Shown one piece after another: positions 5,243 through 25,425 of a stretch of 64,000 nt of DNA (position 1 is its first letter; each line of letters begins with the position of its first letter). Source of the stretch: Eubacterium sp. (GTDB lineage Bacteria; Bacillota; Clostridia; Lachnospirales; Lachnospiraceae); assembly GCA_017614395.1 (NCBI GenBank), contig JAGABX010000039.1, positions 982-64,981 of the forward strand. Direction: 5' to 3'. The notes under the pieces were generated by a model. That model worked only from the letters and a program-made list of their open reading frames with translations, was not told the origin of the DNA and searched no databases. Both the position numbers and the translations under genes were made by a program.

Positions 5243-6475
5243 CTATCGTACGTCTGAATTATACACTACTTGATGATAAAAGTCAAAAGGAGAAATGGCC
5301 TCATAGATGTCCTCTTCCCGCGGCGGGCAGCCGGGCACATATGTATCGAATTCACGACAGCAGTTACCGATGCCGAACGTGCCGGTTTTCCCACGGTGTC
5401 CCTGACCGATGGCAATTTTTCCGGTTTGTCTGCGCGTGGTTGTCATATGTCCGTTCGGCGTGTTTGGGGAATCCTGTCCGGGGACAATGCCATTTTTGCG
5501 CTCATCCCATACCCCTTCGTCCCGCAGGCGATTCACCGCACCGACAAATGCGGCAAAGCATGCGCTGCATGAATCGACTTCATCAACAGCAACGGACACA
5601 TCCAAGGCGTTTTCAGATTTCAGATCATATGCGTACGGATCGGGATCGTTCCCTGCGAATTGCTTCAGGACTTCTCCATGTTCATTTATTACACTGATAG
5701 TGCAGCATGAAAGATCGCTGCTGCCCGAGCCTAACGCCTCCGCCATTCCGATATAGGGAACCTCATCAATTCTTCGCCCTAAAATCTTACATGCGTAGCT
5801 GTCAATGAGCACCGGATCTGCCGCGACCATCACGCAGTCGGTCTTTACAGGGTTGCCGCCTTCCTCAAAACTCGGATCGCCGCAGATGTGGTCAACCACG
5901 ATAAAGTCCTGTCGGATTCCTAATGACAGGTATGCGATTGGTTTGTGGAGGCCCATGGTATGGAAACGTCTCTTCTCTGAATTCGGAATCAGTCCCTTCA
6001 TGTTTTTCAGTGCACAGGTCATCCGTGTCTGGCAGTGCCCCTTCAGGACGGGGACATTTATTAAAAAGTCAATCCTGTCCACAACATCACAAATATTTAA
6101 CTCCATGCCGGCTAAATCCACGGCGTGGGCTTTTTCTTTTTGAGTATCGATAAAAGGTACATCATATTTCTCGCAGACAGAACGGTAACCGCAGTACTCA
6201 TAGGCCTCTGACGTGCGGTCGCCGACCCAGGAGCCCTCGGTTATGATGATATTTTTGAATCCATGCTCCTGCAGATATGACACGATCCCCTCGACGATCT
6301 CCGGATGCGTCGTAGCTCCGTAGGACGCCGGCGTGGGCGTGACGAGGTTGGGCTTGATGCCAATGCGTTTGTTCGTGTCGCCGATCAATGCAGCGAGTCC
6401 GGCGTATTTTAGCAGCGATATCGTCATCTCCATCGGATCGCTACCATAGCGTTTGATGATTTCGTTAGGGTTCAT
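5243..6475 (-). CDS. DUF362-family protein with a Cys-rich C-terminal extension
   Basis: IGIKPNLV, ATTHPEIVEGIV and VPVLKGHCQTRMTCALKNMKG match the DUF362 pattern. The track ORF starts at a GTG (6484). The ATG at 6475 (MNPNE) sits 5-6 nt after AGGTGA and is preferred. Confidence 0.7.
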   Translation of the reverse strand: MNPNEIIKRYGSDPMEMTISLLKYAGLAALIGDTNKRIGIKPNLVTPTPASYGATTHPEIVEGIVSYLQEHGFKNIIITEGSWVGDRTSEAYEYCGYRSVCEKYDVPFIDTQKEKAHAVDLAGMELNICDVVDRIDFLINVPVLKGHCQTRMTCALKNMKGLIPNSEKRRFHTMGLHKPIAYLSLGIRQDFIVVDHICGDPSFEEGGNPVKTDCVMVAADPVLIDSYACKILGRRIDEVPYIGMAEALGSGSSDLSCCTISVINEHGEVLKQFAGNDPDPYAYDLKSENALDVSVAVDEVDSCSACFAAFVGAVNRLRDEGVWDERKNGIVPGQDSPNTPNGHMTTTRRQTGKIAIGQGHRGKTGTFGIGNCCREFDTYVPGCPPREEDIYEAISPFDFYHQVVYNSDVR

Positions 6476-6582
6476 TATGCTCACCTGTTTTACTGTTTGT
6501 ATTCAATCGTCTGATTTCCTTCACTGAAATGGTACACTATTGTGACAGCCAGTTTATCCTATTATATCTGACAACAGAACTC

Positions 6583-6611
6583 TTGACAAGCCTGTATTTG
6601 AACGCTACAAT
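6583..6611 (+). promoter_or_regulatory. Sigma-A type promoter for prmA
   Basis: TTGACA (6583-6588), a 17-nt spacer, then TACAAT (6606-6611). Confidence 0.45.
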
Positions 6612-6706
6612 AAAAAATGATATTTTTTTGGAGCCTATTTGACGTACATATCCGAGTCAGACAAAAACAGCGCAGAACATGTAATTTACAGAGGAGGGAA
6701 GACGCC

Positions 6707-7888
6707 ATGAAATGGACCCGCTTCACAATTCATACGACGGTGGATGCCGTTGATATACTGAGTTATGAATTAGATGCCATCGGTGTTGAGGGCATAGAAA
6801 TCGAGGACCACATACCGTTGAGTGAGGAGGACAAACAGAAGATGTTTGTCGACATCCTGCCGGAGCCGGAGGTAGTGGATGATGTCGCGAGAGTTTCGTT
6901 TTATCTGGAAGCGTCGGATATAGAGGATTTGCCGGATATTAATTCAGAGTCGGATTCTGTACTGAGCAGACCTGATAAAAGCTCAAGCATGGAGCAACCG
7001 GTCGATAATGCTACTGAAAACAATCTGTCAGGAAAATCCGTTCAGGAGATTTTGCAGCAGGTACAGGAAATCCTCGCGGATATAGGCACCTACACGGACA
7101 TCGGTGAGGGACGCGTGACGGTCTCAACAACAGAGGACAAGGATTGGATCAATAACTGGAAACAGTATTTCAAACCGTTCCGCGCGTCGGATCGGATCGA
7201 AATATTCCCGAGGTGGATGGATGCTCCGGAACGAGCCGAGCCCCCTCACATCCTCCGCATCGACCCGGGCATAGCGTTCGGAACCGGATCCCATGAGACG
7301 ACGAAGCTCTGCATCAGGGCAATAGACAGATCTATAAATAATGGGGACAGAGTACTTGACATCGGTACCGGCAGCGGGATACTCTCGATCGTTTCACTCC
7401 TGCTTGGAGCCTCGCACGCGACGGCAATAGATATCGATGAGATTGCTGTTAAAGTTGCAAAGGAGAATTTTGACGCTAATAATATAGATCCGAATAAATA
7501 TGAATTATTAGCGGGAAATCTGCTTGGGGATGCCGCGTTTGTTAATTTGATATATACTAAGTCGCGGAACGGAGCGGCGGTTGAACAGATGCCACAGAAC
7601 GCAGAAGCTGCTGCCGGGCAAACAGACGAAGAGACAAATAGTATTCCGGAAACCACTCACCCAGGTTACGACCTCGTCATCGCTAATATCCTGCCCGATG
7701 TCATAGTACCGTTGACCGCGATCGTCCCGCGCTTTTTAAAAAAGGATGGGCTCTACATCACATCCGGGATCCTCGCGACGAGAGAGAAGGAGGTTCGGGA
7801 TGCCATGACAGAGGCCGGCTTTACTGATATTGAAACGACGCCGATGGGCGAGTGGGTCAGTTTGACGGGAAGGTTCCGGCGAACTTGA
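6707..7888 (+). CDS. prmA: Ribosomal protein L11 methyltransferase with two hydrophilic insertions
   Basis: MKWTRFTIHT...DAVDILSYEL..GVEGIEIED, the SAM motif VLDIGTGSGILSI, and ANIL. The ATG at 6707 is preceded by GAGGAGGG. The upstream part of the track ORF (6617-) is not needed. Confidence 0.85.
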   Translation: MKWTRFTIHTTVDAVDILSYELDAIGVEGIEIEDHIPLSEEDKQKMFVDILPEPEVVDDVARVSFYLEASDIEDLPDINSESDSVLSRPDKSSSMEQPVDNATENNLSGKSVQEILQQVQEILADIGTYTDIGEGRVTVSTTEDKDWINNWKQYFKPFRASDRIEIFPRWMDAPERAEPPHILRIDPGIAFGTGSHETTKLCIRAIDRSINNGDRVLDIGTGSGILSIVSLLLGASHATAIDIDEIAVKVAKENFDANNIDPNKYELLAGNLLGDAAFVNLIYTKSRNGAAVEQMPQNAEAAAGQTDEETNSIPETTHPGYDLVIANILPDVIVPLTAIVPRFLKKDGLYITSGILATREKEVRDAMTEAGFTDIETTPMGEWVSLTGRFRRT

Positions 7889-12310: not shown

Positions 12311-13090
12311 ATGAGTCTGTTAGAGGTTGAACACATCGGAAAAAGATTTGAGGATACGCAGGTTCTCAGTGACATTTCTTTTTCCCTTGAAAAAAGTGAG
12401 GTGCTGTCGATTATCGGCTCGTCGGGCAGCGGCAAGACGACTTTGCTGCGTTGCCTGAATTTCCTCGAGCAGGCGGATACCGGCACCATCCGCGTCGCAG
12501 GCGAGCTGGTTTATGACGCGGCTGATCCGACATTTCGCAGGGAATCCGTCATGCGCGTCAACCGTCTGCATTTCGGATTGGTGTTCCAGTCGTTCAACCT
12601 TTTTCCGCAGTATACGGCACTTGAGAACATCACTCTCGCCCGCCGTTTACAGGTGAGCGAGGAGGCGGATTTCAAGGAGAATAAAAAGAAGTATTTTGAA
12701 CAGATCGACCGGGAGGGCGAGGAGCTGTTGGACCAGATGGGACTCTCCGACCGGATGGGAAATTATCCGCACCAGCTTTCCGGCGGGCAATGCCAGCGTG
12801 TGGCGATCGCACGGGCACTCGCGTTGAAGCCGGACATCCTGTGTTTTGATGAGCCGACCTCTGCGCTGGATCCTGAGCTGACCGGCGAGGTCCTGCGCGT
12901 TATCAGGGAATTGGCTGAGCAGAAAATGACAATGATCATCGTGACACACGAGATGAGTTTTGCGAGGGACGTGTCGGATCAGGTCATATTCATGGATAAC
13001 GGCTTTGTTTTGGAAAAAGGAACTCCGGAGCAGGTCATCATGCATCCGAAGGAGGAGCGGACCAGGCAGTTTCTGGGGACGTTCGGTTAG
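12311..13090 (+). CDS. Amino-acid ABC transporter ATP-binding protein
   Basis: Walker [10 protein letters not shown], signature [15 protein letters not shown], Walker [13 protein letters not shown] and H-loop VTHEM. Confidence 0.9.
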
Positions 13091-16000
13091 AGGTCGCCGG
13101 TTGTGTTATAACGTACCGGATATCTACATTTTCCCTTGCATCTGCGGTTTCGTTTTTGGGAATGCATCTTCCTGCTTTGACCGGCATCAAAGGCTTGTAA
13201 GTGGAGCCTACCTTTTTATCTATCCGATCATTAATTGTTGCTCTCATAATTGAACCGGTGCATTCATATGGAATTTTGTAACCATCATATTCCAAGTCTT
13301 TAAAATCCTTATTACTATTGCAATCCGTATAGAATACTTTAGTGTAAATAGGAAGTCCGCTTGATCCGAACTGTATCGGGATTTCTTCCGGGTCATCCAG
13401 ATCATATACATGAAGCCTTGTCTCTATGGAATGTGGTCCTGTCGCATATCTATACAGGTAATTGCAATAGAGTTTCGTGGTGGTTTCCACTCCGGCCGTG
13501 TTCGCCGGTATGGGCAGATCATTCGCATAAAAATCGAATTCACCGGATACACGGGGGACAATCTTGATAACACAGGTTATGTTCCGTCCTGTTGTCAGAG
13601 TGGCCCGGATCGTCTCTTTGTATCCCTCGACCTGGTAGACAAAATCATGCCTTTTCGATAGAATAATATATTTACCATCCCATTTCGCCCTGTAGAGGAA
13701 CCGTTTATCATCTCTACATTTATCATTCATTCTTACATCAACCGATTCGATATCGCCGGCGAAGCCATCAATTTTCGCTTTCAGCCACATACGGTTGTCA
13801 CAGATGGCATCGAATTGGTTAGAAGACTCATTCGTGAGGATCAAACCTTCTTTTTCCGATTTATTTGTAACGGTGATCTTCAGTGTTGTGGAGTATTTTA
13901 CACCTTTATTGCTATATTTGATTGTGAGTTCTTTATTGCCTTTCTCGGCTTTTCTCTGACCTGTGACTTTGATCGTACCGGTTTCCTCGTCCTTTTCGAC
14001 TGTTATACCTTTAGGTACATTCGACCAGCTGATCTTTGTCATATCCGGGATGACAGAATCATTAAGGGTAACCCGGATGGTTTCTGATTCTTTCGCATAT
14101 TTATTACTCATTTCTATTTTGCTCTTGCTGAGGGTGAGTTTTGGTGTTTCATCTGATTTTTTCAGATTGAATTTTGCTTTGACAGCCGTCCCGGGAACCC
14201 ACCTGGAATTAGTGAACCGTACATAACCGTTTACATTACCTTGCATCGCATCTCTGTCTACCGACAGGGAGATGTTCGAGTACTTTTCATGTTTTACGGT
14301 TACATAATCCAGGACTGTCTGTCCGTCAGAGTCCACATAATCGAGAGACCATGTCCCGTCTCCGCAATTACTCGGCATATCGCCGGACTTCTCACAGAGT
14401 TTGATATCGGTGTTTTTTTCATTATCACTCAGTGTACTCGGGATGGTCGAGGTGGTTTTATCCAACTCGTAGTACGGGAGAGTATAGCATCCGATTACCC
14501 GGACCTCGGCATAATTATAAACATTATCCAGATTGCCGTTTACATCGATGCCGCGAACACGGAAAAGCACGGTTCGGTAGTTATTGTTTTCCGCAATCAT
14601 TTTCACCTGATCAGCCGTGATACCGTCCTTGAGCTTGAGACCGACAACGGTGTTTCCATTATCGCTCCCCATCCTGTCCGGAGCTACATCGCACATTTCC
14701 CAGAATTTGTATCCTTCCGCATCCTCGTAGCCGGGGACAGGATGGTCTACGATCTGGACATATCTCGGATCTGCATTTGCCCTAGTTCCCTTGAAATAGA
14801 CTACGGCATATTCATCCTTGAATAACATGTTAAACTGATTAAACGTTTTTGCCACGAAGGTTGACTTTTCATTAACGGGCAGCTCCTCGTCATAGGTTCC
14901 CCAGACAGCCCGGATCGACAGAACACCGTAATGGTTCGTTGTATCAATGGTTGCCTGATCCTCCGTTCCGGCTGTGAGCGGAGCTAATGTCCATTCCTCG
15001 CCCTCGAATTTGTATTCGTAGCCCTTGAACGCGACACGAATCCCCGGATATCCCTTGTCACCCGGTTTGATATAATTCAGGGTTACCGGTTGTCCATAGG
15101 TATAGTTGGTAAGCGCCTCATTGGGATTCGCCGCGCCGCGGAATGATTCCGTGTCAAATACTATGTCGGTGAGCGGCTGGCGCCATACGGCGTGCAACAT
15201 CAGATCTCCGGAACATCCGGAAGGGAGTGTAGTAAATGTGTCGGTGCCGAGTGGTGACAGACTCCATCCGGCGAATACAGAGCCCTGTTTGGTTGGTTCT
15301 TTTGGTATTTCTACCGACTCACCATAGTTGTATTTGTCAGGATTTCCGGTCTCCATGACACCACCAGCCAGATCATAGTTTATATTGTATGTATATGGTG
15401 TGAAATGTGCATAGACCGTGATGTTTCTGTTACTGATGGTTACGACCCTGCCGGTTCCCTCCGGCGTCAGGTACCAGCCATCGAATTCCGCGCCTGTTTT
15501 CCATGCGTCCTCGAGCATGACAGTCACGTCCTCGCGATAGGTTGAGGGGTTGTGCGGACTGTTGGTGCCGCCGTTCAACACATAGGTGATGTTGTAGTAT
15601 TTGTACTGGTATGGGGTCTGTACCGGAATTGGGTTGCCGACCGGTCTGCGGGCGGGAGTGGGGTCGGGGGCGGGAGTGGGTGCCTTGCGTTGAGCAGTGA
15701 AGGTGAAGGTATTATTAGCATTATCATACACAACCCTCCATCGATCATATTGGTTAGGATCTAATTTTTTTTCATTAAATTTCTCATCGTTTACTGGTCG
15801 TACCTTTATATAAAAATAATAAGCGGAATCAGATTGCCGAACCTGAAGACCGCTTGGAGTACCTTCTCCCCAATTAGTCGAATCATCATTTAAAAGTGTA
15901 GTTTCATTAGTCGCATTTTTGTATATGATATTTATACTTGTATCAGGGGTACTACTTCCACAAGTGCAATAACAAATACAATCTCCAGGATAATAATCAC

Positions 16001-16193
16001 CACCATTTTGAAATGATTTCATATTTGCCGGATCGTTATTGAGATTGGTATAATCCTCTGCCTTCGCATCCTTTACCCGGAACAGCTCCGCAGGCGGGAA
16101 CGCAGACGCTAACAACGCCAAGCATAGGAACAGAGTTATAGTGACCAGGTTCCTTTTTTTCATTTTGAATACTCTCTTACATGCATTCTTCAT
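13038..16193 (-). CDS. Large secreted surface protein with InlB B-repeat (Listeria-Bacteroides repeat) modules
   Basis: N-terminal signal peptide. Repeated Y-x-I-x-Y-x-L-x-GG ... F-x-GW modules are present ([11 protein letters not shown]...FDGWY; [11 protein letters not shown]...FAGWS). No LPXTG anchor was seen. The start could also be the MKKRN Met at 16163. Confidence 0.75.
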
Positions 16194-16367: not shown

Positions 16368-17708
16368 CTACCTCCGGTTTGACCTCCGCCAGATCTTCCT
16401 CTCCTCCGCCTCTCGTATGAGTTCGTCACGGAAATCCGGATGCGCTATGGAGATCAGCATCTCGGCGCGCTCCCATGTCGAGCGGCCCTCGAGGTTGACG
16501 ACGCCGTATTCCGTCGCGATGAAGTATACCTGGCTGCGAGGCGAGGTAATGATATCACCGTTGAACTGTGGCAGGATGCGTGACTGGATCGTTCCGTCGC
16601 GGCGGGTATGGATAGATTTCATGCATAAAAAGGCTTTGCCGCCTCGTGACGCGGATGCGCCCGTCAGGAAATCCAGCTGGCCGCCGGTACCGCTGATCTG
16701 TCTCGAGCCGGCGCTTTCCGCCGCCACCTGACCGTACAGATCCACCGCAACGCAGGCGTTGATGGATACCATATTGTCGAGCTGTTCGATCACGCTTGGA
16801 TTGTTTACATATTCCAACGGATAGGCTGCCAGGCTGTGGTTGTCATCCAGCCATTCATATAATTCAGCCGAGCCGATGGCGCATCCGAATACGCCCTTGC
16901 CCCGGTTGAAACTCTTTTTCATGTTGGTCAGTTTCCCTGCGCGATGCAACTCTAAATAAGCATCGGTACACAGCTCTGTATGCATTCCGATATCCTGAAT
17001 ATCGCTTTCGGCAATGGCGGCTCCGATCGCGTTCGGAATCGCGCCGATCCCGAGCTGGAGGTTTGCTCCGTCGACGATGTACGGGATGATATGTCCGGCG
17101 ATCTGCTCATCTATCGGCGTCGGGTTTATCGGCAGATAGTTTGGGAACGGCTCGTGCTCCCCCTCAACGATCATGTCAACGTCTGAGATGTGGATGCATT
17201 CCTGGTAACCGCCGTGGATTTTCGGGAGGTTCTCATTTACCTCGACGATGACAATGTCTGCTTTTTCACAGATAGGACCTGCCACGCCGGTATTCACCGA
17301 GTAATTGAAATAACCGTGTTTGTCCATAGGCGTGACACTGACCATAACGACGTTCACGTCAATAAAAAACTCATAATACGCCGCGTTGTTATGGAATACC
17401 ATGGGGATATAATAGCAGAGCCCCCTGTCACAGAGCTTCCGTTCGTATGAGGAGCAGTGCCAGGAATGATAGACAAAATGCTCCTGCGTTGGATCGCACT
17501 CGGCGGTCTCAATCGGACCTACGATCAGGTTTCCGCGTATTTTCACGTCCTCGAGTTCGTCACGCCTTTTCGCGAGCGCGCGGTCCAGCAGTATCGGCAT
17601 CCCGAGCGTGCTGGTATAGTCCACCCAGTCGCCGTTTTTTACACATGACACCGCCTCCTCAGGCGTTCTGAGTTTGTTCCGGTATTCGTTAGAAAAATCC
17701 TCTATCAT
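16368..17708 (-). CDS. but: Acetyl-CoA hydrolase/transferase family enzyme, butyryl-CoA:acetate CoA-transferase type
   Basis: DLYGQVAAESAGSRQISGTGGQLDF and the C-terminal WERAEMLISIAHPDFRDELIREAEERKIWRRSNRR closely resemble the But-type CoA-transferases of butyrate producers, as I recall those sequences. GGAGG Shine-Dalgarno site. Confidence 0.7.
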   Translation of the reverse strand: MIEDFSNEYRNKLRTPEEAVSCVKNGDWVDYTSTLGMPILLDRALAKRRDELEDVKIRGNLIVGPIETAECDPTQEHFVYHSWHCSSYERKLCDRGLCYYIPMVFHNNAAYYEFFIDVNVVMVSVTPMDKHGYFNYSVNTGVAGPICEKADIVIVEVNENLPKIHGGYQECIHISDVDMIVEGEHEPFPNYLPINPTPIDEQIAGHIIPYIVDGANLQLGIGAIPNAIGAAIAESDIQDIGMHTELCTDAYLELHRAGKLTNMKKSFNRGKGVFGCAIGSAELYEWLDDNHSLAAYPLEYVNNPSVIEQLDNMVSINACVAVDLYGQVAAESAGSRQISGTGGQLDFLTGASASRGGKAFLCMKSIHTRRDGTIQSRILPQFNGDIITSPRSQVYFIATEYGVVNLEGRSTWERAEMLISIAHPDFRDELIREAEERKIWRRSNRR

Positions 17709-17853: not shown

Positions 17854-18666
17854 TTACCAGAGCCTTTCCTCCACCTCATTCCGGAAAAAGAATTTGCTCC
17901 GCGCGCCCGATTTTACCGGTGTCAGGCGGCCGCGACGAACGAGGTCATCTATGTTCTGGCGAGTACAGTTCAGGCGTCTCGCAGTCTCTGCAGTGTCACA
18001 TACCTCACGATCGATAAAAAGCCTCATATCATCTAGATTCATGGGCAGAGGCGTTCCTATTTTTCTGATAACATAGTCCGCAATCTCAATCGTTTCGCCC
18101 CAGCCGATGCTGTAACCGCCGGCGTTTACCCTAACTTTTTCAAAAACATGATTATCAGAGAGGACGGGTTTGAACCTGCGGTCCCTGCCGACGAGGTCTG
18201 TCAATTTGCACATCACGGATGTTTTGTCATGAAAAAAAACCAACAGCCGCCGGTCGTTCAGCGGGGTAACGGATTGGATCCGCTGTTTCCCGCGTTCACG
18301 TATTGCATCCGGGAGTTCGTTCTCCGTTATCTGTTCAATCATGCAGTCGTCCTGTGCGCAGCGTCCGTCGGTCAGGATCAACAGTTTGTACTCATCGTAT
18401 TCCGCCAGTCCCGCATCCCTCAAAATCTGACCGATATTCTGGCGGTCACGGGGTATGATGCGGTTACATACCCAGTGCATGCTCCATTCCGAGTCAACAT
18501 AGTTTATGCCTTTTTTTATATATTGGTCGAGTATCAGGGGAGCGTCATTAAACGACAGTCTGTCGGGAATCTCGATATAAAACCGCCCGGCATTTTCAAA
18601 ATAGTACAGATACCCAACGGCTCCCAGCATCGGCCGATATTCATCTGTAATTCTGCAAATCTTCAT
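17854..18666 (-). CDS. Three-part putative antitoxin/regulator: HipS/HipA-N-like N-terminus, DUF2442-like middle and C-terminal excisionase/MerR-type HTH
   Basis: The N-terminal pattern is NRIIPRDRQNIGQILRDAGLAEYDEYKLLILTDGRCAQD. The middle is IQSVTPLNDRRLLVFFHDKT...FEKVRVNAGGYSIGWGE. The C-terminus is DTAETARRLNCTRQNIDDLVRRGRL. The ORF overlaps the kinase ORF by 26 nt and has an AAGGTGG Shine-Dalgarno site. Confidence 0.5.
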   Translation of the reverse strand: MKICRITDEYRPMLGAVGYLYYFENAGRFYIEIPDRLSFNDAPLILDQYIKKGINYVDSEWSMHWVCNRIIPRDRQNIGQILRDAGLAEYDEYKLLILTDGRCAQDDCMIEQITENELPDAIRERGKQRIQSVTPLNDRRLLVFFHDKTSVMCKLTDLVGRDRRFKPVLSDNHVFEKVRVNAGGYSIGWGETIEIADYVIRKIGTPLPMNLDDMRLFIDREVCDTAETARRLNCTRQNIDDLVRRGRLTPVKSGARSKFFFRNEVEERLW

Positions 18667-19570
18667 AGACGCGCCACCTTTCCCAAATCATTTTCCAAAT
18701 CTTATCCAGCCATGCGTCCGGGAGGACACCCTCCAGATCAAAAAGGATTACATCACGGTCGGATTCCTGCAGGGGACGGCTGGTCCATGTACCTGAGACA
18801 GATTCGTTATCTAAGCCGGACTGCTGAATCAGGTTGCCGGATCGGGTTTTCGAGACAGATTTATCATTATCGTCAGACAGCAAAACCCGGCTGCCGGATT
18901 GGCTTCCCGAAATCAGTTTCAGGTTTTCATATGCTGACCGCCCGCCGATAAAGCTTTGGACAGGGAGGTCAGCCATTATATCAAAAGCCTCCATCTCGGA
19001 ATCCGTATGACATGAAAACATCAGCGAGAGACCGTGATCATAGAGAGGAGCCAGCCGGACGCTTTTTCCGGAGCCTTTCAAAACCTCGATGTTTGCTCCG
19101 TGTCTGTCCCTGTTCAGGATCAAAAAATCAGTCATCAGCATGGAGTTAATTATATCGGTCCAGCCCATCCTGTGACAAAATTCAATGGGGGTTTCATTGG
19201 CTTTTTTGCACTGCTGATAGTAAATGTCAAAAGCGACCTTTCTCTCGCCGGGCCGTTTGAAATCCTCGGAAACGCAGATATAGGTTGAAATTCGCGCTCC
19301 ATCAACAACTATGTCTGCATTAATAAGACGGTATGGTACATGATCTATGCCAAGGGTAGTCAGTAGCCGGTCGACAATTATCTCGTTCACTGACTCATGA
19401 CCCACCACGCCGTTCAAAGCTTCGTAATTCGACATTTTATAATACTTTTTTGTTCCATCGAGATCTGAGTATGCTTTTAAAAACGAGCCTGCCGTTCCGG
19501 ATGTATGCCGGTATCGTGACCAGGTCAGATGTGTCAGATCCTGTTTTTCATGTATGATTTTATCGTCCAT
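18641..19570 (-). CDS. Short HipA-family (HipT-like) Ser/Thr kinase, putative toxin
   Basis: Gly-rich loop SGTAGSFLK, catalytic loop LNRDRHGAN (D-x-H-x-x-N) and LAPLYDHG. At 309 aa it has no HipA N-terminal subdomain. GGAGG Shine-Dalgarno site. Confidence 0.7.
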   Translation of the reverse strand: MDDKIIHEKQDLTHLTWSRYRHTSGTAGSFLKAYSDLDGTKKYYKMSNYEALNGVVGHESVNEIIVDRLLTTLGIDHVPYRLINADIVVDGARISTYICVSEDFKRPGERKVAFDIYYQQCKKANETPIEFCHRMGWTDIINSMLMTDFLILNRDRHGANIEVLKGSGKSVRLAPLYDHGLSLMFSCHTDSEMEAFDIMADLPVQSFIGGRSAYENLKLISGSQSGSRVLLSDDNDKSVSKTRSGNLIQQSGLDNESVSGTWTSRPLQESDRDVILFDLEGVLPDAWLDKIWKMIWERWRVYEDLQNYR

Positions 19571-19634
19571 TTATTTATACCTCCGGAGAGCCTCAATTAT
19601 AAACGAATCACAAGGAAAACACCTTTCAAAACAG

Positions 19635-19666
19635 AGTATAACAGAGAACTTGACATATGTCAAGTT
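19635..19666 (-). promoter_or_regulatory. Promoter plus palindromic operator of the kinase operon
   Basis: On the minus strand: TTGACA (19658-19663), a 17-nt spacer, then TATACT (19635-19640). The perfect 20-bp palindrome AACTTGACATATGTCAAGTT (19647-19666) covers the -35 box and the upstream part of the spacer. Confidence 0.6.
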
Positions 19667-19831
19667 GATAAAAGTGTGGGTGTAAGTGCTTGACGAGATT
19701 GTGTCAAATATGATATAATTATCAAACAAAACAAGTTTTGTTATGATATTATGAGAGATATTGATATAATAGTATAATTATCCGATACGATATGATGAGA
19801 TAAAAATCTCGCTATTGAGGAAGGAGCAATA

Positions 19832-20617
19832 ATGAGAAAGCTTAACAAAAACCTAAAGGATATGATAGAAAAAACAGGGTTGGATATTGAACAATTACCG
19901 GAAGATAATCTATTGGGCGCACAGGGAAGAATAATTGCATATTTGATCAGTACAGGTAAACTATCGTATGAACAATATAAAGAGATGTATCGGGAATTTG
20001 AAGATCGAAATGAATACATTAAAGTATTTGAAATGGCGCCGAGAACCTTTGGAGAGACATGGTTGGAAAAAAGAATCTTGGAAAAATTCCCATATACTCC
20101 GGGAACTAATGGTAAGGGATTAATTAAAGCAAAGAAAAAAGATGTTGAACGAGAGTTTCCAAACTATTCAGATCCGTTAGGAAAACCGTTTGGGAGCCAA
20201 TTTGATTTCATATGTTTTGATGGTTGCCAAAGGTATAAAGTAGAAGTCAAGGCATGTAGAGCCAATTCCGAGGAGCCTATAGACGAATTGGGGACATCCA
20301 GTTTGTCAAGTCGGGCATATTCGTATAATGAAGCGAAAAAATTCGAGTTCAAGTTTCACTTTCAGCAGATCAAGCCAGGTTTTTGTGATGTGTTTATTCT
20401 TGTTGGTGTATGTACAGACAAAATATTATATTGGATACTTACTCCAGATGAGTTGATAAAAGCAGGAGGATTATCACCGCAACACCCAACAAGCGGAATA
20501 AAAGATGTTAATGATGCTAAATTTGAAGGACAAGTATACAAACGAATAGATGACTATAAAAAGTTTCTGGTGAACGAGGGACAAATACTGGATATGATAA
20601 TCAAAAAAATGCATTGA
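19832..20617 (+). CDS. Hypothetical PD-(D/E)xK-type nuclease, candidate restriction endonuclease partner of the adjacent methyltransferase
   Basis: FDFICFDG-x10-YKVEVKACR gives a D...E-x-K core. The ORF is convergent with the MTase across a 56-bp gap and lies in an AT-rich island. An extended -10 promoter lies at TTGACG (19690) ... TGATATAAT (19711-19719). Confidence 0.5.
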   Translation: MRKLNKNLKDMIEKTGLDIEQLPEDNLLGAQGRIIAYLISTGKLSYEQYKEMYREFEDRNEYIKVFEMAPRTFGETWLEKRILEKFPYTPGTNGKGLIKAKKKDVEREFPNYSDPLGKPFGSQFDFICFDGCQRYKVEVKACRANSEEPIDELGTSSLSSRAYSYNEAKKFEFKFHFQQIKPGFCDVFILVGVCTDKILYWILTPDELIKAGGLSPQHPTSGIKDVNDAKFEGQVYKRIDDYKKFLVNEGQILDMIIKKMH

Positions 20618-20673: not shown

Positions 20674-22836
20674 TTAAGTGAGGAACAGGTTTCCTTCATC
20701 CATTGTCGACTTAATGATTCCATACTCTTCAGTCTTGATATTGTAAAAAGTCGCTATTATTTTATCAAGTTCATCATAGAATTTTTTTATTTCATTTGCT
20801 TTATTTGAATCAAGAATATCATCGACCAAAGCTATTATTTTGTTTTGATCCCCGGCTGATACCATCGGGATCGGAAGTTCCTCTAAATGTGCTCTCAAAA
20901 CCTTTACTGAATTAAATTGTTTTTTAAAATAAAATTGCATACATCTAGAATTTAGAACTGCCATTATGTATTTAATTTTTATATCCGGTATTTCTGGTAT
21001 AAGAATATTACAACTGTTTAGTGACAGTGTTTGTTTATCATCGTATGCAAACACAAGCTGATTACAGATAAATCTATACAATAATTTTTCAGGCGCACGA
21101 TACATTTTGGTGGGAGCCACTTGCTGAAATCTTTCTGGAGAAAACACCATATAGTTTTCTGACGGTTTGATTCGAAATTTTAACAAATCTGATCCTTTTA
21201 ATACTGTTTCGCTTTCATGTGTTTTTTCTTTTTTTATGTATTCATTATTATTTCCAGTTACAATTCCCAAAGCATATTTAGCCTGCCCTTTCAGTGTGGT
21301 TTTATTATTAAGACCACCCATTTTTTTTACAATTCTGTATTCTTCATCTGTCATAGAGAGACTAATGCAGTTAGCTGTTATTTCTCTTTCTGTCATAATC
21401 TTAAACTCTCGACTGCCGTCTGATACAATCATGCCAATACTACTAAACCCGGCCTTTTTATTTAGCATTTGCAGAATAATGCATGGACATTGAACTTTGT
21501 CGAACGCGTTCCCTATATACTCTATGTATTGGAAATCGCAACTGCTTAGAATCTTACTACGAATCATAGTATGCGTCTTAACATTCAAAATTGCTTCCGG
21601 TAAAATAAAAGATAGTATTCCATCCGGATTCAAATTGGAAAGTGCCTGTTCAACAAAAATATCATATGATTCAATACTATTACCTAAGGCTGAATAGTAC
21701 CTGCTTCTTAATTCTCTCTTATACAGATCAGAAAAATCATATCCCCACGGCGGATTTCCAATTATAAAGTCATATTCGTTTTCTTTTTCATCACAGAGAT
21801 AATCCTTTTCTGTAATATGCCCATAAACGATCTCCGGAGCATACTGATCATATTTCAAGGCGAAGTTAATTCGCGCTATCTGTACACTAATTGTATCAAT
21901 ATCGTTACCATAAACATATTCGAAGTCGATTTCATTAGGAAGTTGAAGGATAAAATTACCCGTCCCACAACACGGATCCAAAATCTTTTTTCCGACAGGA
22001 TTATTCATACTAAACAGTTTATTGCATAGTTTTTTAACAATTCTTGTTGGTGTATAATATGATCCCGTTGCTTTCCTTTCACCTATGTTTTTTAAAGAAA
22101 TATATAATAGTCCAAGCGTGTCTTCAGATGGTTCGTATTCAAATCTGTGATTAAACAACTCCGGATGTTTACTTATAATATCAAGAATACCAGTTTGGTT
22201 GTTTATGAGATCATCTATTAGATACCAACAATCATTTTCCGGTAAATTACCCTGGATATATTTACTAAGAGTATTAGAATCCGCAGTATACCCAATTTTT
22301 CTTAAAAAAAGCTGGATTGCACATTCTGAAATAACAAGGCGTAATAGGCTGTCCGTTAATTCCAGACAGGCTTCATCCACCTCATCTATTATTTTTTTAA
22401 CAATATATCGACTTTCTGATAATTCAGAAACATACGAATTGTAAATGTTATTTCCAGTAATATGCTTTTTATTTCTTCTGCTTTTTAACACTCCGTTTTT
22501 TCCGTTCTTAATTTCTTCCTTTAATGAATTCACATATGTCTGGCTAAAAAGCGGTGATCGTTTAGTTTCACAACATGGACTGATTTTCCCAAGTCTTAGC
22601 CAGTTTCGACCGGTAGCAACCGATACAGATAATTCACTACATAAATCTGAAAGTGACAATAAGTCACCTCCGTTAACACTGCGCTCATCAAGTGGTTTTA
22701 CCGCATCACTTGGTATAAGCCAAACATTACTTATCATTTGCGCCCCAGCAATTCGTCCTTCCTCACATAGTTTTTGCACTCTACGTTCTGAAATATTAAA
22801 TCGTTCCGCGGTTTGTTTTACTGATTGCAACTTCAT
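20674..22836 (-). CDS. Gamma-class N6-adenine DNA methyltransferase (Eco57I/TaqI-like) with two N-terminal HTH motifs
   Basis: Motif I ILDPCCGTGNFIL and motif IV IIGNPPWGY. A C-terminal TaqI-like target-recognition region is present. The N-terminus has SVKQTAERFNISERRVQKLCEEGRI and a second HTH, LSDLCSELSVSVATGRNWLRLGKI. AAGGAG Shine-Dalgarno site. Confidence 0.85.
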   Translation of the reverse strand: MKLQSVKQTAERFNISERRVQKLCEEGRIAGAQMISNVWLIPSDAVKPLDERSVNGGDLLSLSDLCSELSVSVATGRNWLRLGKISPCCETKRSPLFSQTYVNSLKEEIKNGKNGVLKSRRNKKHITGNNIYNSYVSELSESRYIVKKIIDEVDEACLELTDSLLRLVISECAIQLFLRKIGYTADSNTLSKYIQGNLPENDCWYLIDDLINNQTGILDIISKHPELFNHRFEYEPSEDTLGLLYISLKNIGERKATGSYYTPTRIVKKLCNKLFSMNNPVGKKILDPCCGTGNFILQLPNEIDFEYVYGNDIDTISVQIARINFALKYDQYAPEIVYGHITEKDYLCDEKENEYDFIIGNPPWGYDFSDLYKRELRSRYYSALGNSIESYDIFVEQALSNLNPDGILSFILPEAILNVKTHTMIRSKILSSCDFQYIEYIGNAFDKVQCPCIILQMLNKKAGFSSIGMIVSDGSREFKIMTEREITANCISLSMTDEEYRIVKKMGGLNNKTTLKGQAKYALGIVTGNNNEYIKKEKTHESETVLKGSDLLKFRIKPSENYMVFSPERFQQVAPTKMYRAPEKLLYRFICNQLVFAYDDKQTLSLNSCNILIPEIPDIKIKYIMAVLNSRCMQFYFKKQFNSVKVLRAHLEELPIPMVSAGDQNKIIALVDDILDSNKANEIKKFYDELDKIIATFYNIKTEEYGIIKSTMDEGNLFLT

Positions 22837-23051
22837 ATAAACAACTCCTTACGCATATAATGTAATATTATATACGAGCTTGCGAATAATGTCAACATTA
22901 ATGTACACTTGACTTTCACTCGCGTCTATGCGATAATAAAGCGGTAAACGCAAACATGTTTAGGAGCGATGAAAATGCAAGATGTCGGGAACTTTTTCTG
23001 AAAAAAAGCAGCCCGGGCAGGATTAACATTCGCTCCGGAATGGAGGTATCT

Positions 23052-23520: not shown

Positions 23521-25425
23521 ATGGGAAATATCAAAGCTGTTAAGTATAAAAAAAGAATAATTAGTCTTGTTTTACTGTTATCAGTATTTTTATCATCATA
23601 TATCGACTCAACGGCAAGTCGGATTGTCGGACAAACCAATGAACAGTTGAAGGACTACGCCGTCTCCTGTATAAATGCTCTCGTAGCGGAGCCGGGTGTC
23701 GGTTCCATCGGAGGGGAGTGGGCGGTGCTCACGCTCGGTCGGGCAGGTGCGGTTACGCCGGAATTCAAGGCGAAATATATGGCTCACTTACGAGAAAAAA
23801 TGTCTGCAGCGACATCGACTGTCAATGAACGCAACAGCTCTGAGAGAATAATTCGTGAATTCATTATGTGGAAAAAGAATATTCGGTTGATGTCAACGGC
23901 AGAAAACAAAACAAATACTGCATGCAGGCTGCACGAGAAAAAGGCTACGGAAAACGAGCGCGTGATCATAGCATTGTCTGCGCTGTGTGAGCCGGTTATT
24001 ATTGATGGATATGATCTGGCAGAGCCACTCTATGATTTCAGTTATACTACCGGGCAGGGCATCAACGGAGCGATATTCGGTCTGATCGCTCTCGATATGG
24101 CGGCCTACTATAGGGAAGGCGAGGCCCCGTTACAGACAACCGCAAACGATGAAGTGTCTGTCCGAGATGACCTGCTGAGATTTATACTGGAACGTGAGCT
24201 CGCCGGTGGTGGATGGACCATGATCGGAACGCAGGCGGATCCTGATATAACGTTTATGGCGTTGCAGGCTCTCGCTCCGTATTATGGCAGAGATGAACAG
24301 GTCAAGTCAGCGGTAGACAGAGTATTGACCGCGATGAGTGTGCAGACAAATATTGTTTTACAGAACACACAAACCGAAGTATCTGATGAATTTAACGGCA
24401 GAGATACGGGGGTTGCAGGGGTAGAGTCGAATTCCCTGAATAAGCCCGCCGGAACAGCTGAAACCGCCGCTCAGAAAATAGTTGCGCTCACGTCATTGGA
24501 CATAAACCCGAGAACAGATCCGAGATTTTTTGTAGATGGCAAATCAGCTGTTGACGAGTTGCTCGCCTTTCGGACTAAGGGTGGGTTCGCTCATACACTA
24601 AATAAGAATTCGAAAGGATTAACATGGTATGAGGGTGCGGAGCAGATTGAGTCTTCGGCATCTGAATCATCAGGTAATTTAGATCGAATGGCAACCGAAC
24701 AGGGCGCATATGCCTGTGTAGCGCTGTGGCTGCTGGATCATGGGAAACATCTGTATGACCATCTGATATGGGAACCCGGCAGTGGCGTTCCGCCTGTTAC
24801 ACCGGGAACAACAATCGCACCGGAATCAACGATGTCTCCGACGATGCCCACTCCAACGCCGGAGCCGGGAACCACATCGGTCACAGGTTCAGCTGATTCA
24901 GTGACGGTTTCAAATGATGATGGTTCTGTTACTACGACATCTTTTTCCTCTGATGGGAGAATATCTCAGATTGAAGTTGAAAAAAGCAATGATAACAGTA
25001 GGATCCGGTTGATCTATACCTCAACGGACGGCATAGTGATGAAACTGTCACGAGTTCGGATAAACGGCAGTTCTTATTCATCAATTTCCATAAACAGTGT
25101 AATGGATTCCGCCGGAGTCAGCCACAGGGTAATTTGTATCGTGCCGAGGGCGGTGCGAGGATCAAAACAGTTGAGGAGCGTTACTCTCGGCAGCAATATC
25201 AAAACCATAGGCAGTGCCGCATTTGAAAAGTGTTCAAATTTGAAACGTCTCACGCTGTCGGCAAAGAATCTAAAATCTATAGGTAAAAACGCGATACGTG
25301 GCATTCATCAGAGGGCAGTCATTCGTATTCAAGGAAATAACAAACAGTATAAATCCGTTGTAAAAAAAATAACTAAAAAAGCAACGGGATATGAATCGGG
25401 GATGACGATTATGAAGTTATCGTGA
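23521..25425 (+). CDS. Secreted prenyltransferase/squalene-oxidase-repeat (alpha6/alpha6 toroid) protein with Pro/Thr linker and C-terminal BspA-type leucine-rich repeats
   Basis: N-terminal signal/anchor. Toroid-type repeats are present (GGEWAVLTLGRAG, NGAIFGLIALD, GGGWTMIGTQADPDITFMALQALAPYY, GGFAH). The LRR region has TLGSNIKTIGSAAFEKCSNLKRLTLS. Confidence 0.7.
   Translation: MGNIKAVKYKKRIISLVLLLSVFLSSYIDSTASRIVGQTNEQLKDYAVSCINALVAEPGVGSIGGEWAVLTLGRAGAVTPEFKAKYMAHLREKMSAATSTVNERNSSERIIREFIMWKKNIRLMSTAENKTNTACRLHEKKATENERVIIALSALCEPVIIDGYDLAEPLYDFSYTTGQGINGAIFGLIALDMAAYYREGEAPLQTTANDEVSVRDDLLRFILERELAGGGWTMIGTQADPDITFMALQALAPYYGRDEQVKSAVDRVLTAMSVQTNIVLQNTQTEVSDEFNGRDTGVAGVESNSLNKPAGTAETAAQKIVALTSLDINPRTDPRFFVDGKSAVDELLAFRTKGGFAHTLNKNSKGLTWYEGAEQIESSASESSGNLDRMATEQGAYACVALWLLDHGKHLYDHLIWEPGSGVPPVTPGTTIAPESTMSPTMPTPTPEPGTTSVTGSADSVTVSNDDGSVTTTSFSSDGRISQIEVEKSNDNSRIRLIYTSTDGIVMKLSRVRINGSSYSSISINSVMDSAGVSHRVICIVPRAVRGSKQLRSVTLGSNIKTIGSAAFEKCSNLKRLTLSAKNLKSIGKNAIRGIHQRAVIRIQGNNKQYKSVVKKITKKATGYESGMTIMKLS

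Follow-up and report, generated by a model that had tools for sequence, protein, structure and literature searches.

A putative kinase-first Hip-like operon of Clostridia, pairing a CtkA-like kinase with a three-domain DUF2442–HTH_17 partner protein

Introduction

Does a pair of overlapping genes in which a short HipA-like kinase precedes its presumed partner form a toxin–antitoxin (TA) operon of the Hip type, and how does such a pair relate to the Hip systems already described? The question is raised by a locus on the minus strand of a contig of Eubacterium sp. (Lachnospiraceae; JAGABX010000039.1, positions 982 to 64,981), which was analysed as one stretch of 64,000 nucleotides, here called the window. 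An earlier sequence-only reading had proposed a permuted HipBST-like module, made of a HipT-like kinase followed by a HipS-like/DUF2442-like/helix-turn-helix (HTH) fusion under a palindromic operator. Having followed this up computationally, we regard it as probable, though well short of certain, that the locus is an autoregulated type II TA-like Hip operon with the toxin gene first. Behind this view stand the arrangement of the two genes and their strict pairing, the conserved catalytic residues, the folds predicted for both proteins, and an operator that is conserved and covaries with the recognition helix of the partner.

Results

Layout of the operon

From the list of open reading frames (ORFs) and the sequence itself, the kinase ORF (309 aa) lies at 18641–19570 and the partner ORF (270 aa) at 17854–18666, both on the minus strand and both where the sequence-only reading had placed them. 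The 3′ end of the kinase gene and the start of the partner gene share 26 nt, as had been noted (18641–18666, minus), and the partner is preceded by the ribosome-binding site AAGGTGG, followed by ATG. A second ribosome-binding site, GGAGG, can be read at 19580–19584 (minus), 9 nt 5′ of the kinase ATG, and GAGGTG or GGAGG is found at the equivalent position in homologous loci. In these loci, where genes were called, the frames overlap too, by 26 or 35 nt; the 26-nt overlap with the kinase gene suggests translational coupling of the partner.

The kinase

The product of the first gene is a HipA/CtkA-superfamily Ser/Thr kinase, to judge from its catalytic residues, from profiles and from its AlphaFold2 (AF2) model, and the putative toxin of the pair. 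The motifs by which a HipA kinase core had been recognised (SGTAGSFLK, NRDRHGAN and LAPLYDHG) are all present: the Gly-rich loop TSGTAGSFLK occupies residues 23–32 and ends in K32, the catalytic loop NRDRHGAN residues 153–160 (D155-x-H157-x-x-N160), and LAPLYDHG residues 174–181, with the Mg-binding D178. In an alignment of 55 kinase homologues K32, D155, H157, N160 and D178 are invariant, as are S24 and S29, while S23 and T26 are nearly so. HipA and HipT autophosphorylate beside the Gly-rich loop and, by analogy, the kinase may do so near its own loop, at the S/T positions found there. The Gly-rich loop lies at residues 57–64 in HipT and at 150–157 in HipA; here it is reached already at residues 23–32, which leaves the kinase without N-subdomain-1, in agreement with the earlier remark that the HipA N-terminal subdomain is lacking.

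The Pfam profile HipA_C (PF07804) matches the window kinase at residues 144–182 only, with E 2.4e-4 and 21.2 bits for a gathering cut-off of 30.5; the profile check that had been suggested thus gives a match, but one under the cut-off. The same profile matches 55/55 members of the kinase family, none with an E-value better than 1e-4 and none at the cut-off. Because of these low scores the family carries no Pfam label, is mostly annotated as "hypothetical protein" and has escaped annotation. The PADLOC profile PDC-M03A matches residues 128–190 (63 of 309) with E 7e-10, and NCBIfam gives a weak YjjJ match.

When the family profile was searched against PDB sequences, the single significant match was CtkA of Helicobacter pylori (E 1.3e-6). 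The AF2 model of the kinase, with a predicted local distance difference test score (pLDDT) of 80.5 and a predicted template-modelling score (pTM) of 0.81, also retrieved CtkA first with Foldseek (E 8e-8, template-modelling score (TM) 0.54–0.56), and HipA next (E 1e-4); Fam20 and PI4KII followed, and then HipT of E. coli and Legionella (E ~1e-3, TM 0.41–0.46). A PI3/4-kinase-like fold and a complete active site are common to the kinase, HipA and CtkA. Comparison of the kinase family alignment with the single E. coli HipA sequence gave a catalytic-loop match only (E 0.0055), and is too shallow to decide. On the profiles and the predicted fold, the kinase appears to be a HipA-superfamily member outside the curated HipA_C family, and the HipT likeness first proposed gives way to a closer one to CtkA than to either HipT or HipA.

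The partner protein

The AF2 model of the partner (pLDDT 92, pTM 0.83) consists of three domains. The first (residues 1–127; 18286–18666, minus) is predicted by AF2, Foldseek, hhalign and the PADLOC profile PDC-M03B to be a HipS/HipA-N-subdomain-1-like, putatively kinase-neutralising domain, modelled as three N-terminal strands, four helices and a closing strand (pLDDT ~90). It is followed by a beta-rich DUF2442 domain (residues ~130–205; 18052–18279, minus; Pfam, Foldseek and the PDB profile search) and by an HTH_17 domain, an excisionase/MerR-type winged HTH and putative operator binder (residues ~211–269; 17860–18036, minus; Pfam, PHROG and Foldseek), whose proposed recognition helix lies around C234-S-R236-Q-N-I-D-D-L. 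The window protein stays below the cut-off for both Pfam families (HTH_17, E 2.7e-4, 21.6 bits, cut-off 27; DUF2442, E 4.7e-3, 17.6 bits, cut-off 23.9), and each family is matched by 62/62 partner members, with best E-values of 5.5e-10 for DUF2442 and 7e-10 for HTH_17; by these profiles, the two assignments are solid only at family level. The earlier description of a DUF2442-like segment followed by an excisionase/MerR-type HTH is therefore borne out by all members.

The partner C-terminus matches the excisionase phrog_4691 (E 1.2e-13), and with Foldseek the HTH domain finds BldC, Xis, RdfS and phage MerR-like HTHs; it is also the only domain of the partner with matches among viral structures. 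Being HTH_17 and not of the Xre type, it is a HipB analogue rather than the permuted HipB that had been proposed. Foldseek aligned the partner with NE0471 (2auw), a DUF2442 and HTH protein, over 129 columns (E 2e-3), and the partner profile, searched against PDB sequences, retrieved NE0471 alone (E 0.095). DUF2442 is common in antitoxins and is a recognised antitoxin-associated domain (bioRxiv 10.1101/2023.12.08.570793); in the partner it is probably a linker or dimerisation module.

Relationship of the partner N-domain to HipS

The motif segment in which a resemblance to HipA-N/HipS had been noted, NRIIPRDRQNIGQILRDAGLAEYDEYKLLILTDGRCAQD, corresponds to partner residues 68–106 and contains most of the positions that are invariant in the family (R69, P72, R75, Q76, N77, L82, Y90, G101, R102, C103, Q105 and D106). 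The PDB folds matched by the N-domain are those of HipA and HipS only. Foldseek aligned it with Shewanella HipA (4pu4_B) with E 0.02 and probability 0.95, and over 119 columns, with TM 0.58 normalised to the target, with 7czo. The latter entry bears the title "N-terminal domain of HipA toxin" and is the structure of H. influenzae HI_0666, which we take, from the HI0665/HI0666 gene pair, to be the HipS of the H. influenzae hipBST locus.

For the comparison of sequences, a HipA-N/HipS alignment of 13 sequences was used, which combined HipA of E. coli K-12 and HipS of E. coli O127 with diverse HipA N-termini taken from Table S1 of Gerdes 2021. With this alignment hhalign found the expected register at E 0.52; with deeper alignments on both sides P was 0.03–0.07 and partner residues 1–121 were colinear with HipA 2–112. 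One and the same end-to-end register was obtained in all hhalign versions, local and global, and in a bridge through PDC-M03B. In it, the partner P-L-I-L-S is set against P-I-S-L-S-L-P of HipA-N/HipS, R-I-V-P-x-D-R-Q-N against G-L-L-P-D/E, Y-D-E-x-x-L-L against x-x-F-x-L-L, and G-R-C-A-Q-D against G-E-D-C-x-G-A. As to the bridge, partner residues 67–115 (49 of 270) match positions 73–122 of the PDC-M03B profile with E 1e-4, and residues 13–64 of E. coli HipS match positions 24–79 with E 0.05, colinear with the partner; PDC-M03A is matched by HipA, HipT and the window kinase alike. The partner family alignment gave nothing significant against the single E. coli HipA, a comparison too shallow to decide.

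Since hhalign reaches only P 0.03–0.07 even with the deeper alignments, we claim no sequence-level homology to HipS. At the level of the predicted fold we consider the N-domain, with moderate confidence, HipS/HipA-N-like, and it is likely to be homologous, or at least functionally equivalent, to HipS. Such a reading fits the genomic logic of the locus, as a kinase without exactly this domain is encoded directly upstream. Of the resemblance first noted, the fold and the colinear alignments hold, but the sequence similarity is not significant and Couple_hipA is not listed for the family.

The promoter and its palindrome

A perfect 20-bp palindrome, AACTTGACATATGTCAAGTT (19647–19666), is the proposed operator. 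It overlaps the −35 box of a sigma-70-type promoter found by consensus scan (19635–19663, minus), TTGACA (19663–19658)-17-TG-extended TATACT (19640–19635), which has 11/12 consensus matches in addition to the TG extension and whose −35 box is held by the left half of the palindrome. The sequence-only reading had described palindrome and promoter in the same way, and an operator-like element now proves to be family-wide: the core TTGWC-N4-GWCAA lies upstream of the kinase in 66/74 homologous loci against 0.19 expected from shuffles, typically in the form tACTTGAC(A/G)TA(T/C)G(T/A)CAAGTa. In the 64-kb window CTTGAC-N(2-10)-GTCAAG occurs once, against 0.04 expected. In most homologous loci ~17 nt separate the palindrome from TATAAT, after which come GAGGTG and the start codon. 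A divergent subfamily (L029, L036, L056, L063, L065, L078 and L084) has the palindrome downstream of the −10 box. That the palindrome is kept merely as a −35 box was rejected, given that its mirror half is equally conserved and that it stands 3′ of the −10 box in the divergent subfamily.

The half-site and the proposed recognition helix of the partner covary. ACTTGAC is found with C-S-R-Q-N-I-D/E-D-L, ATTTGAC with C-S/T-R-Q-N-L/I-A/S-Y, and TTGAT...ATCAA, present in two loci, with C-S-M-Q-N, where Arg236 is replaced by Met. This was observed, besides the window, in L044, L051 and the loci of the divergent subfamily, and it suggests a direct Arg–guanine contact between Arg236 and the half-site. 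The covariation and the conservation of the operator are strong comparative evidence that the partner reads the palindrome and is autoregulated, and from it we infer that the partner would bind there and repress the operon.

Other features of these promoters were also observed. In ~16 homologous loci (including L001, L005, L009, L013, L026, L039, L050 and L060) the palindrome arms are extended and perfect over 13–23 bp, giving palindromes of 40 bp in L001 (~5938–5977, with the kinase start at ~6001) and L005, and, in L060, one of 46 bp that is mismatched at its centre. Among loci the outer arms vary yet stay complementary, so that the symmetry is kept and not the sequence; the right arm is the −35/−10 spacer and runs into the −10 box. 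A promoter-wide operator, template-switch correction of a quasi-palindrome and a DNA-structure element (cruciform) are possible explanations. A second operator copy (…GACAAGTaaa…) lies ~30–35 nt 5′ of the main palindrome in L067, L071, L072, L074, L077, L080, L081, L058 and L068.

Distribution, pairing and genomic context

The kinase family comprises 3197 clusters at 90% identity (E up to 1e-3). Among GTDB species representatives, tblastn confirmed at least 530 relatives, almost all in Clostridia of the gut and rumen (Lachnospiraceae, Oscillospiraceae, Ruminococcaceae and others). A profile search of 1.84 billion representatives with the partner N-domain gave 740 clusters at 50% identity. Its best 150 matches are almost all proteins of 265–287 aa or fragments, from which the three-domain architecture is the rule; they belong to the family itself only, with no link to other architectures among them.

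In 81/84 fetched loci the partner gene lies directly downstream of the kinase, on the same strand and with overlapping frames, and the three exceptions are contigs ending at or within ~100 nt of the end of the kinase gene. The flanking genes, instead, vary by locus and include HicAB with a DUF1016 protein, an insertion sequence (IS) transposase, queuosine or ExoVII genes, and an integrase with an AAA_14 ATPase and a canonical HipA; several loci lie among housekeeping genes (queuosine synthesis, ExoVII, Cys/Met metabolism). In L093/L094 (4622–10758) the cassette shares an island with a canonical HipA (Couple_hipA and HipA_C), an AAA_14/DUF4143 ATPase and a phage-type integrase. This island is variable, its canonical HipA being split into two ORFs in L094/L095 and missing in L096. 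Varied contexts with IS elements, an integrase and other TA genes are as expected of mobile TA cassettes.

The kinase was found in 2 of 2.9 million viral contigs and on one plasmid, pNP95 of Pseudobutyrivibrio xylanivorans, and in no full-length phage record; a phage or plasmid origin was rejected on these counts. The strict pairing, the varied contexts and the near-absence from viral and plasmid records describe a self-contained, horizontally mobile and mainly chromosomal two-gene cassette, that is, a compact operon inherited as a unit, as type II TA systems are. The plasmid copy (L097, P. xylanivorans MA3014, 6001–7617), the only one of its kind, has an intact kinase of 273 aa. Its partner ORF begins ~20 residues late (253 aa from a TTG, annotated as 193 aa), so that the first strand of the N-domain is seemingly missing, which may reflect a frameshift, a mis-call or real decay.

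Restriction–modification neighbours and other features of the window

The sequence-only reading had remarked that the module sits beside a restriction–modification (R-M) pair. The adjacency is real: a type II restriction endonuclease (REase) gene lies at 19832–20617 (plus; PADLOC REase_II, E 5.5e-18) and, convergent to it, a gene for a TaqI_C/N6_Mtase/Eco57I-type methyltransferase with an N-terminal HTH_17 at 20674–22836 (minus; Pfam/PADLOC). It is not a conserved association, however, as the pair is absent from every other homologous locus examined and its guanine-plus-cytosine (GC) content is 32–34%, against 47–49% for the Hip-like module and its other flank and 45–55% for the flanks overall. 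The low-GC block looks like a separate insertion or horizontal acquisition and, for these reasons, the idea that R-M pair and Hip-like module form one functional unit was rejected.

The HTH_17 of the methyltransferase belongs to the same Pfam family as the partner C-terminus. A divergent promoter-like sequence, TTGACG-18-TG-TATAAT (19690–19719, plus), faces the REase gene, and its −35 lies inside an imperfect inverted repeat, TTGAC-N8-GTCAA (19690–19707), with the half-sites of the Hip-like operator at another spacing; cross-talk with that operator is possible, as is coincidence. At 22885–22925 (minus), 5′ of the methyltransferase start (22836), GTCAAG-N12-TTGACA is followed by a TTGACA-17-TATAAT promoter, and could be an autoregulation site for the methyltransferase's own HTH.

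The window kinase carries a lineage-specific in-frame insertion of ~36–38 aa (residues ~223–260; 18791–18904, minus), recognised from the alignment, pLDDT and self-identity. It consists of two degenerate 57-nt units, SQSGSRVLLSDDNDKSVSK and TRSGNLIQQSGLDNESVSG, with an offset-57 self-identity of 0.56, is predicted to be disordered (pLDDT <50 at residues 223–260) and is missing in all 54 aligned homologues, including the closest one (L087). A 99%-identical protein (P0001) outside this alignment has 309 aa, the length of an insertion-bearing copy. Directly downstream of the partner is an acetyl-CoA hydrolase/transferase gene (16368–17708), with no predicted terminator in between. Large secreted or surface proteins are encoded on both flanks (13038–16193, minus, and 23521–25425, plus), one with Listeria-Bacteroides (Flg_new) repeats and the other with BspA-type leucine-rich repeats, typical of gut Clostridia.

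Discussion

How the operon might work can be proposed by analogy with HipA and HipT. When free, the short kinase would arrest growth by phosphorylating some essential component of the cell; HipA targets GltX and HipT targets TrpS, and an aminoacyl-tRNA synthetase would be the obvious candidate. The partner would be translated by coupling through the 26-nt overlap, which would tie its synthesis to that of the kinase, and its N-domain would supply the missing N-subdomain in trans and hold the kinase inactive. With DUF2442 linking or dimerising the partner, a symmetric dimer of HTH_17 would occupy the CTTGACATATGTCAAG palindrome at the −35 box and so repress the operon. A single polypeptide would thus do the jobs of HipS and HipB, which are separate in HipBST. 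In this scheme the toxicity and target of the kinase are inferred, and so are the neutralising and repressing roles given to the partner.

Several points weigh against this proposal. The HipA_C gathering score is not reached by any of the 55 kinase members tested, and the closest solved relative, CtkA, has been described not as a TA toxin but as a pro-inflammatory kinase that is translocated into host cells and acts on them. For the HipS likeness the basis is a predicted fold; the Foldseek E-values are modest (0.02–0.14, with a three-domain query), the hhalign results are marginal (P 0.03–0.07, or E 0.52 with the shallower alignment), and Couple_hipA is absent from the 25 Pfam families listed for the 62 partner members (E up to 10). 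The shortened partner beside an intact kinase on pNP95, if genuine, would argue against strong toxicity. The last points on the N-domain, together with the insignificant comparison with the single E. coli HipA sequence, would also be expected if the N-domain were unrelated to HipS, a new domain and small alpha/beta look-alike in which the likeness of IIPxDR...LL...GRCAQD to LLPE...LL...GxDxxGA is convergent or due to chance. We find this very improbable, as HipA and HipS are the only PDB folds that the N-domain matches, hhalign in local and global mode and the PDC-M03B bridge agree in register from the first strand to the last, and the domain is encoded beside a HipA-superfamily kinase that is without exactly that domain. 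The standing of CtkA and the plasmid copy, which appears short of its first ~20 residues, would suit, as would the non-significant sequence similarity to HipS, a non-toxic signalling pair, an ordinary regulatory unit of kinase and transcription factor in which the kinase phosphorylates the partner or another specific substrate and tunes the partner's DNA binding, the N-domain serving for docking or as a substrate and not as an inhibitor; wider substrate sets are reported for YjjJ/HipH and similar HipA-like kinases (PMC9948734). This too is improbable in our judgement, if somewhat less so. No conserved binding site was found other than the one at the promoter of the operon itself, which is typical of autoregulated TA modules and not of regulators acting on other genes; the cassette moves among unrelated contexts as a self-contained two-gene unit, DUF2442 and an excisionase-type HTH are typical of antitoxins, and the fold matched by the N-domain is specifically that of HipS/HipA-N.

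Of the alternatives, the one with the best claim, although still unlikely, is an abortive-infection or phage-defence switch, in which a phage product or shut-off removes or titrates the partner, perhaps via DUF2442, and the kinase arrests the cell. It is compatible with the TA mechanism, to which it adds a trigger and a purpose, and abortive infection has been proposed for the analogous hipIN and hipL modules (Gerdes 2021, PMC8262856). The partial matches to PDC-M03A and PDC-M03B are significant (E 7e-10 and 1e-4), but PDC systems are candidates only and the matches span just 63/309 and 49/270 residues. Likewise, a type II R-M pair adjoins the module in the window, and HicAB, a DUF1016 protein, an AAA_14 ATPase, an integrase or a canonical HipA adjoins it in some other loci; yet the R-M pair differs in GC (32–34% vs 47–49%) and is absent from the other loci, there is no conserved defence-island context, several loci lie among housekeeping genes, and no trigger-sensing domain was identified in the module proteins. 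A bolder version, in which an unclassified CtkA-like Hip branch with HipS and HipB merged via a DUF2442 adaptor serves as a phage-triggered abortive-infection switch, with the long palindromes and their covarying arms exerting control through DNA structure (cruciform or hairpin) in place of simple operator reading, appears to us somewhat less likely than the plain switch. The autoregulated TA-like operon is the reading that we retain.

The finding itself is real. The family is widespread and unannotated, the comparative evidence that it is autoregulated is unusually good, and it would add to the Hip kinase TA repertoire a large uncharacterised family of at least 530 relatives and thousands of clusters. 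It would represent a natural experiment on the split HipA N-subdomain, tethered here to the operon repressor in one chain, and would connect a TA-type context with CtkA, viewed until now as a virulence kinase of H. pylori. The conserved operator, with the Arg236-to-Met and GC-to-AT covariation, offers a ready, testable protein–DNA recognition code. Since strains in culture carry homologues (Blautia luti, Cuneatibacter caecimuris DSM 29486, Diplocloster agilis and P. xylanivorans with plasmid pNP95), these predictions can be tested directly.

Comparison with known systems

The sequence-only reading had found T, S and B pieces in the order T then S-X-B. The order, the fusion and the extra domain hold, but S is unproven by sequence and B is not of the HipB type. 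HipBST of E. coli O127:H6 and Legionella pneumophila (PDB 7AB3-5, 7VKB, 8EZR/S) shares with the locus a kinase without N-subdomain-1, a HipS-type domain in trans as likely inhibitor and, as proposed here, an HTH function autoregulating the operon. It differs in having three genes, B-S-T, instead of two, T then S-X-B, in the Xre/Cro-type HTH of HipB where the partner has HTH_17, and in a free HipS of ~100 aa where the domain is here fused to DUF2442-HTH. On its two genes, its fused HipS-like domain and an HTH of another family, the locus is not a HipBST member. CtkA (JHP0940; PDB 3AKJ/3AKK/3AKL), the closest solved relative of the kinase, is likewise without N-subdomain-1 and similar in size (~325 aa), but only 11–13% identical to it.

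PDC-M03, a candidate phage defence system of two genes that "guilt by embedding" brought to light in R-M, BREX or DISARM loci (Payne et al., bioRxiv 10.1101/2024.01.29.577857), has the same order, A then B, and its PADLOC profiles match the kinase (A) and the partner N-domain (B). The matches are local only (kinase residues 128–190, partner residues 67–115), and the B profiles, of 232–245 positions, are matched only up to position 122; the locus is a relative of PDC-M03, not demonstrably PDC-M03. NE0471 of Nitrosomonas europaea (PDB 2AUW) and the DUF4160/DUF2442 TA pairs share with the partner a DUF2442 followed by a helical DNA-binding domain, but these have neither a HipS-like N-domain nor a kinase partner.

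Among Hip systems, Gerdes et al. 2021 (PMC8262856) listed ten gene organisations, with reversed orders in hipAB subclades and hipEB, and kinase-first modules with downstream putative antitoxins, namely hipIN (HipS-like and HIRAN), hipJS (HipS) and hipMP (resolvase-like). A kinase-first order and a fusion of a HipS-like with a DNA-binding domain were therefore already published. HipA, HipT and YjjJ, at E <1e-10, served as seeds for the data set of that study (PMC8262856), and the window kinase, with only E 2.4e-4 on HipA_C, was probably not sampled. In hipIN, as here, the kinase gene comes first and encodes a short core kinase without N-subdomain-1, and the locus has a corresponding HipS-like N-domain by fold, with marginal profile alignments. 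The DNA-binding domain of HipN, instead, is HIRAN, which acts on DNA ends and possibly single-stranded DNA, whereas DUF2442 and HTH_17 appear aimed at a palindromic operator; no HIRAN match is listed by Pfam for any of the 62 partner members. The locus is conceptually closest to hipIN, with DUF2442-HTH_17 replacing HIRAN. In the searchable literature we found no description of a DUF2442-HTH_17 fusion with a HipS-like domain, nor of this kinase branch. Of the uncharacterised Hip-family architecture suggested at the outset, the DUF2442-HTH_17 fusion and the CtkA-like kinase branch are thus the new elements, and they extend a Hip theme that is itself published.

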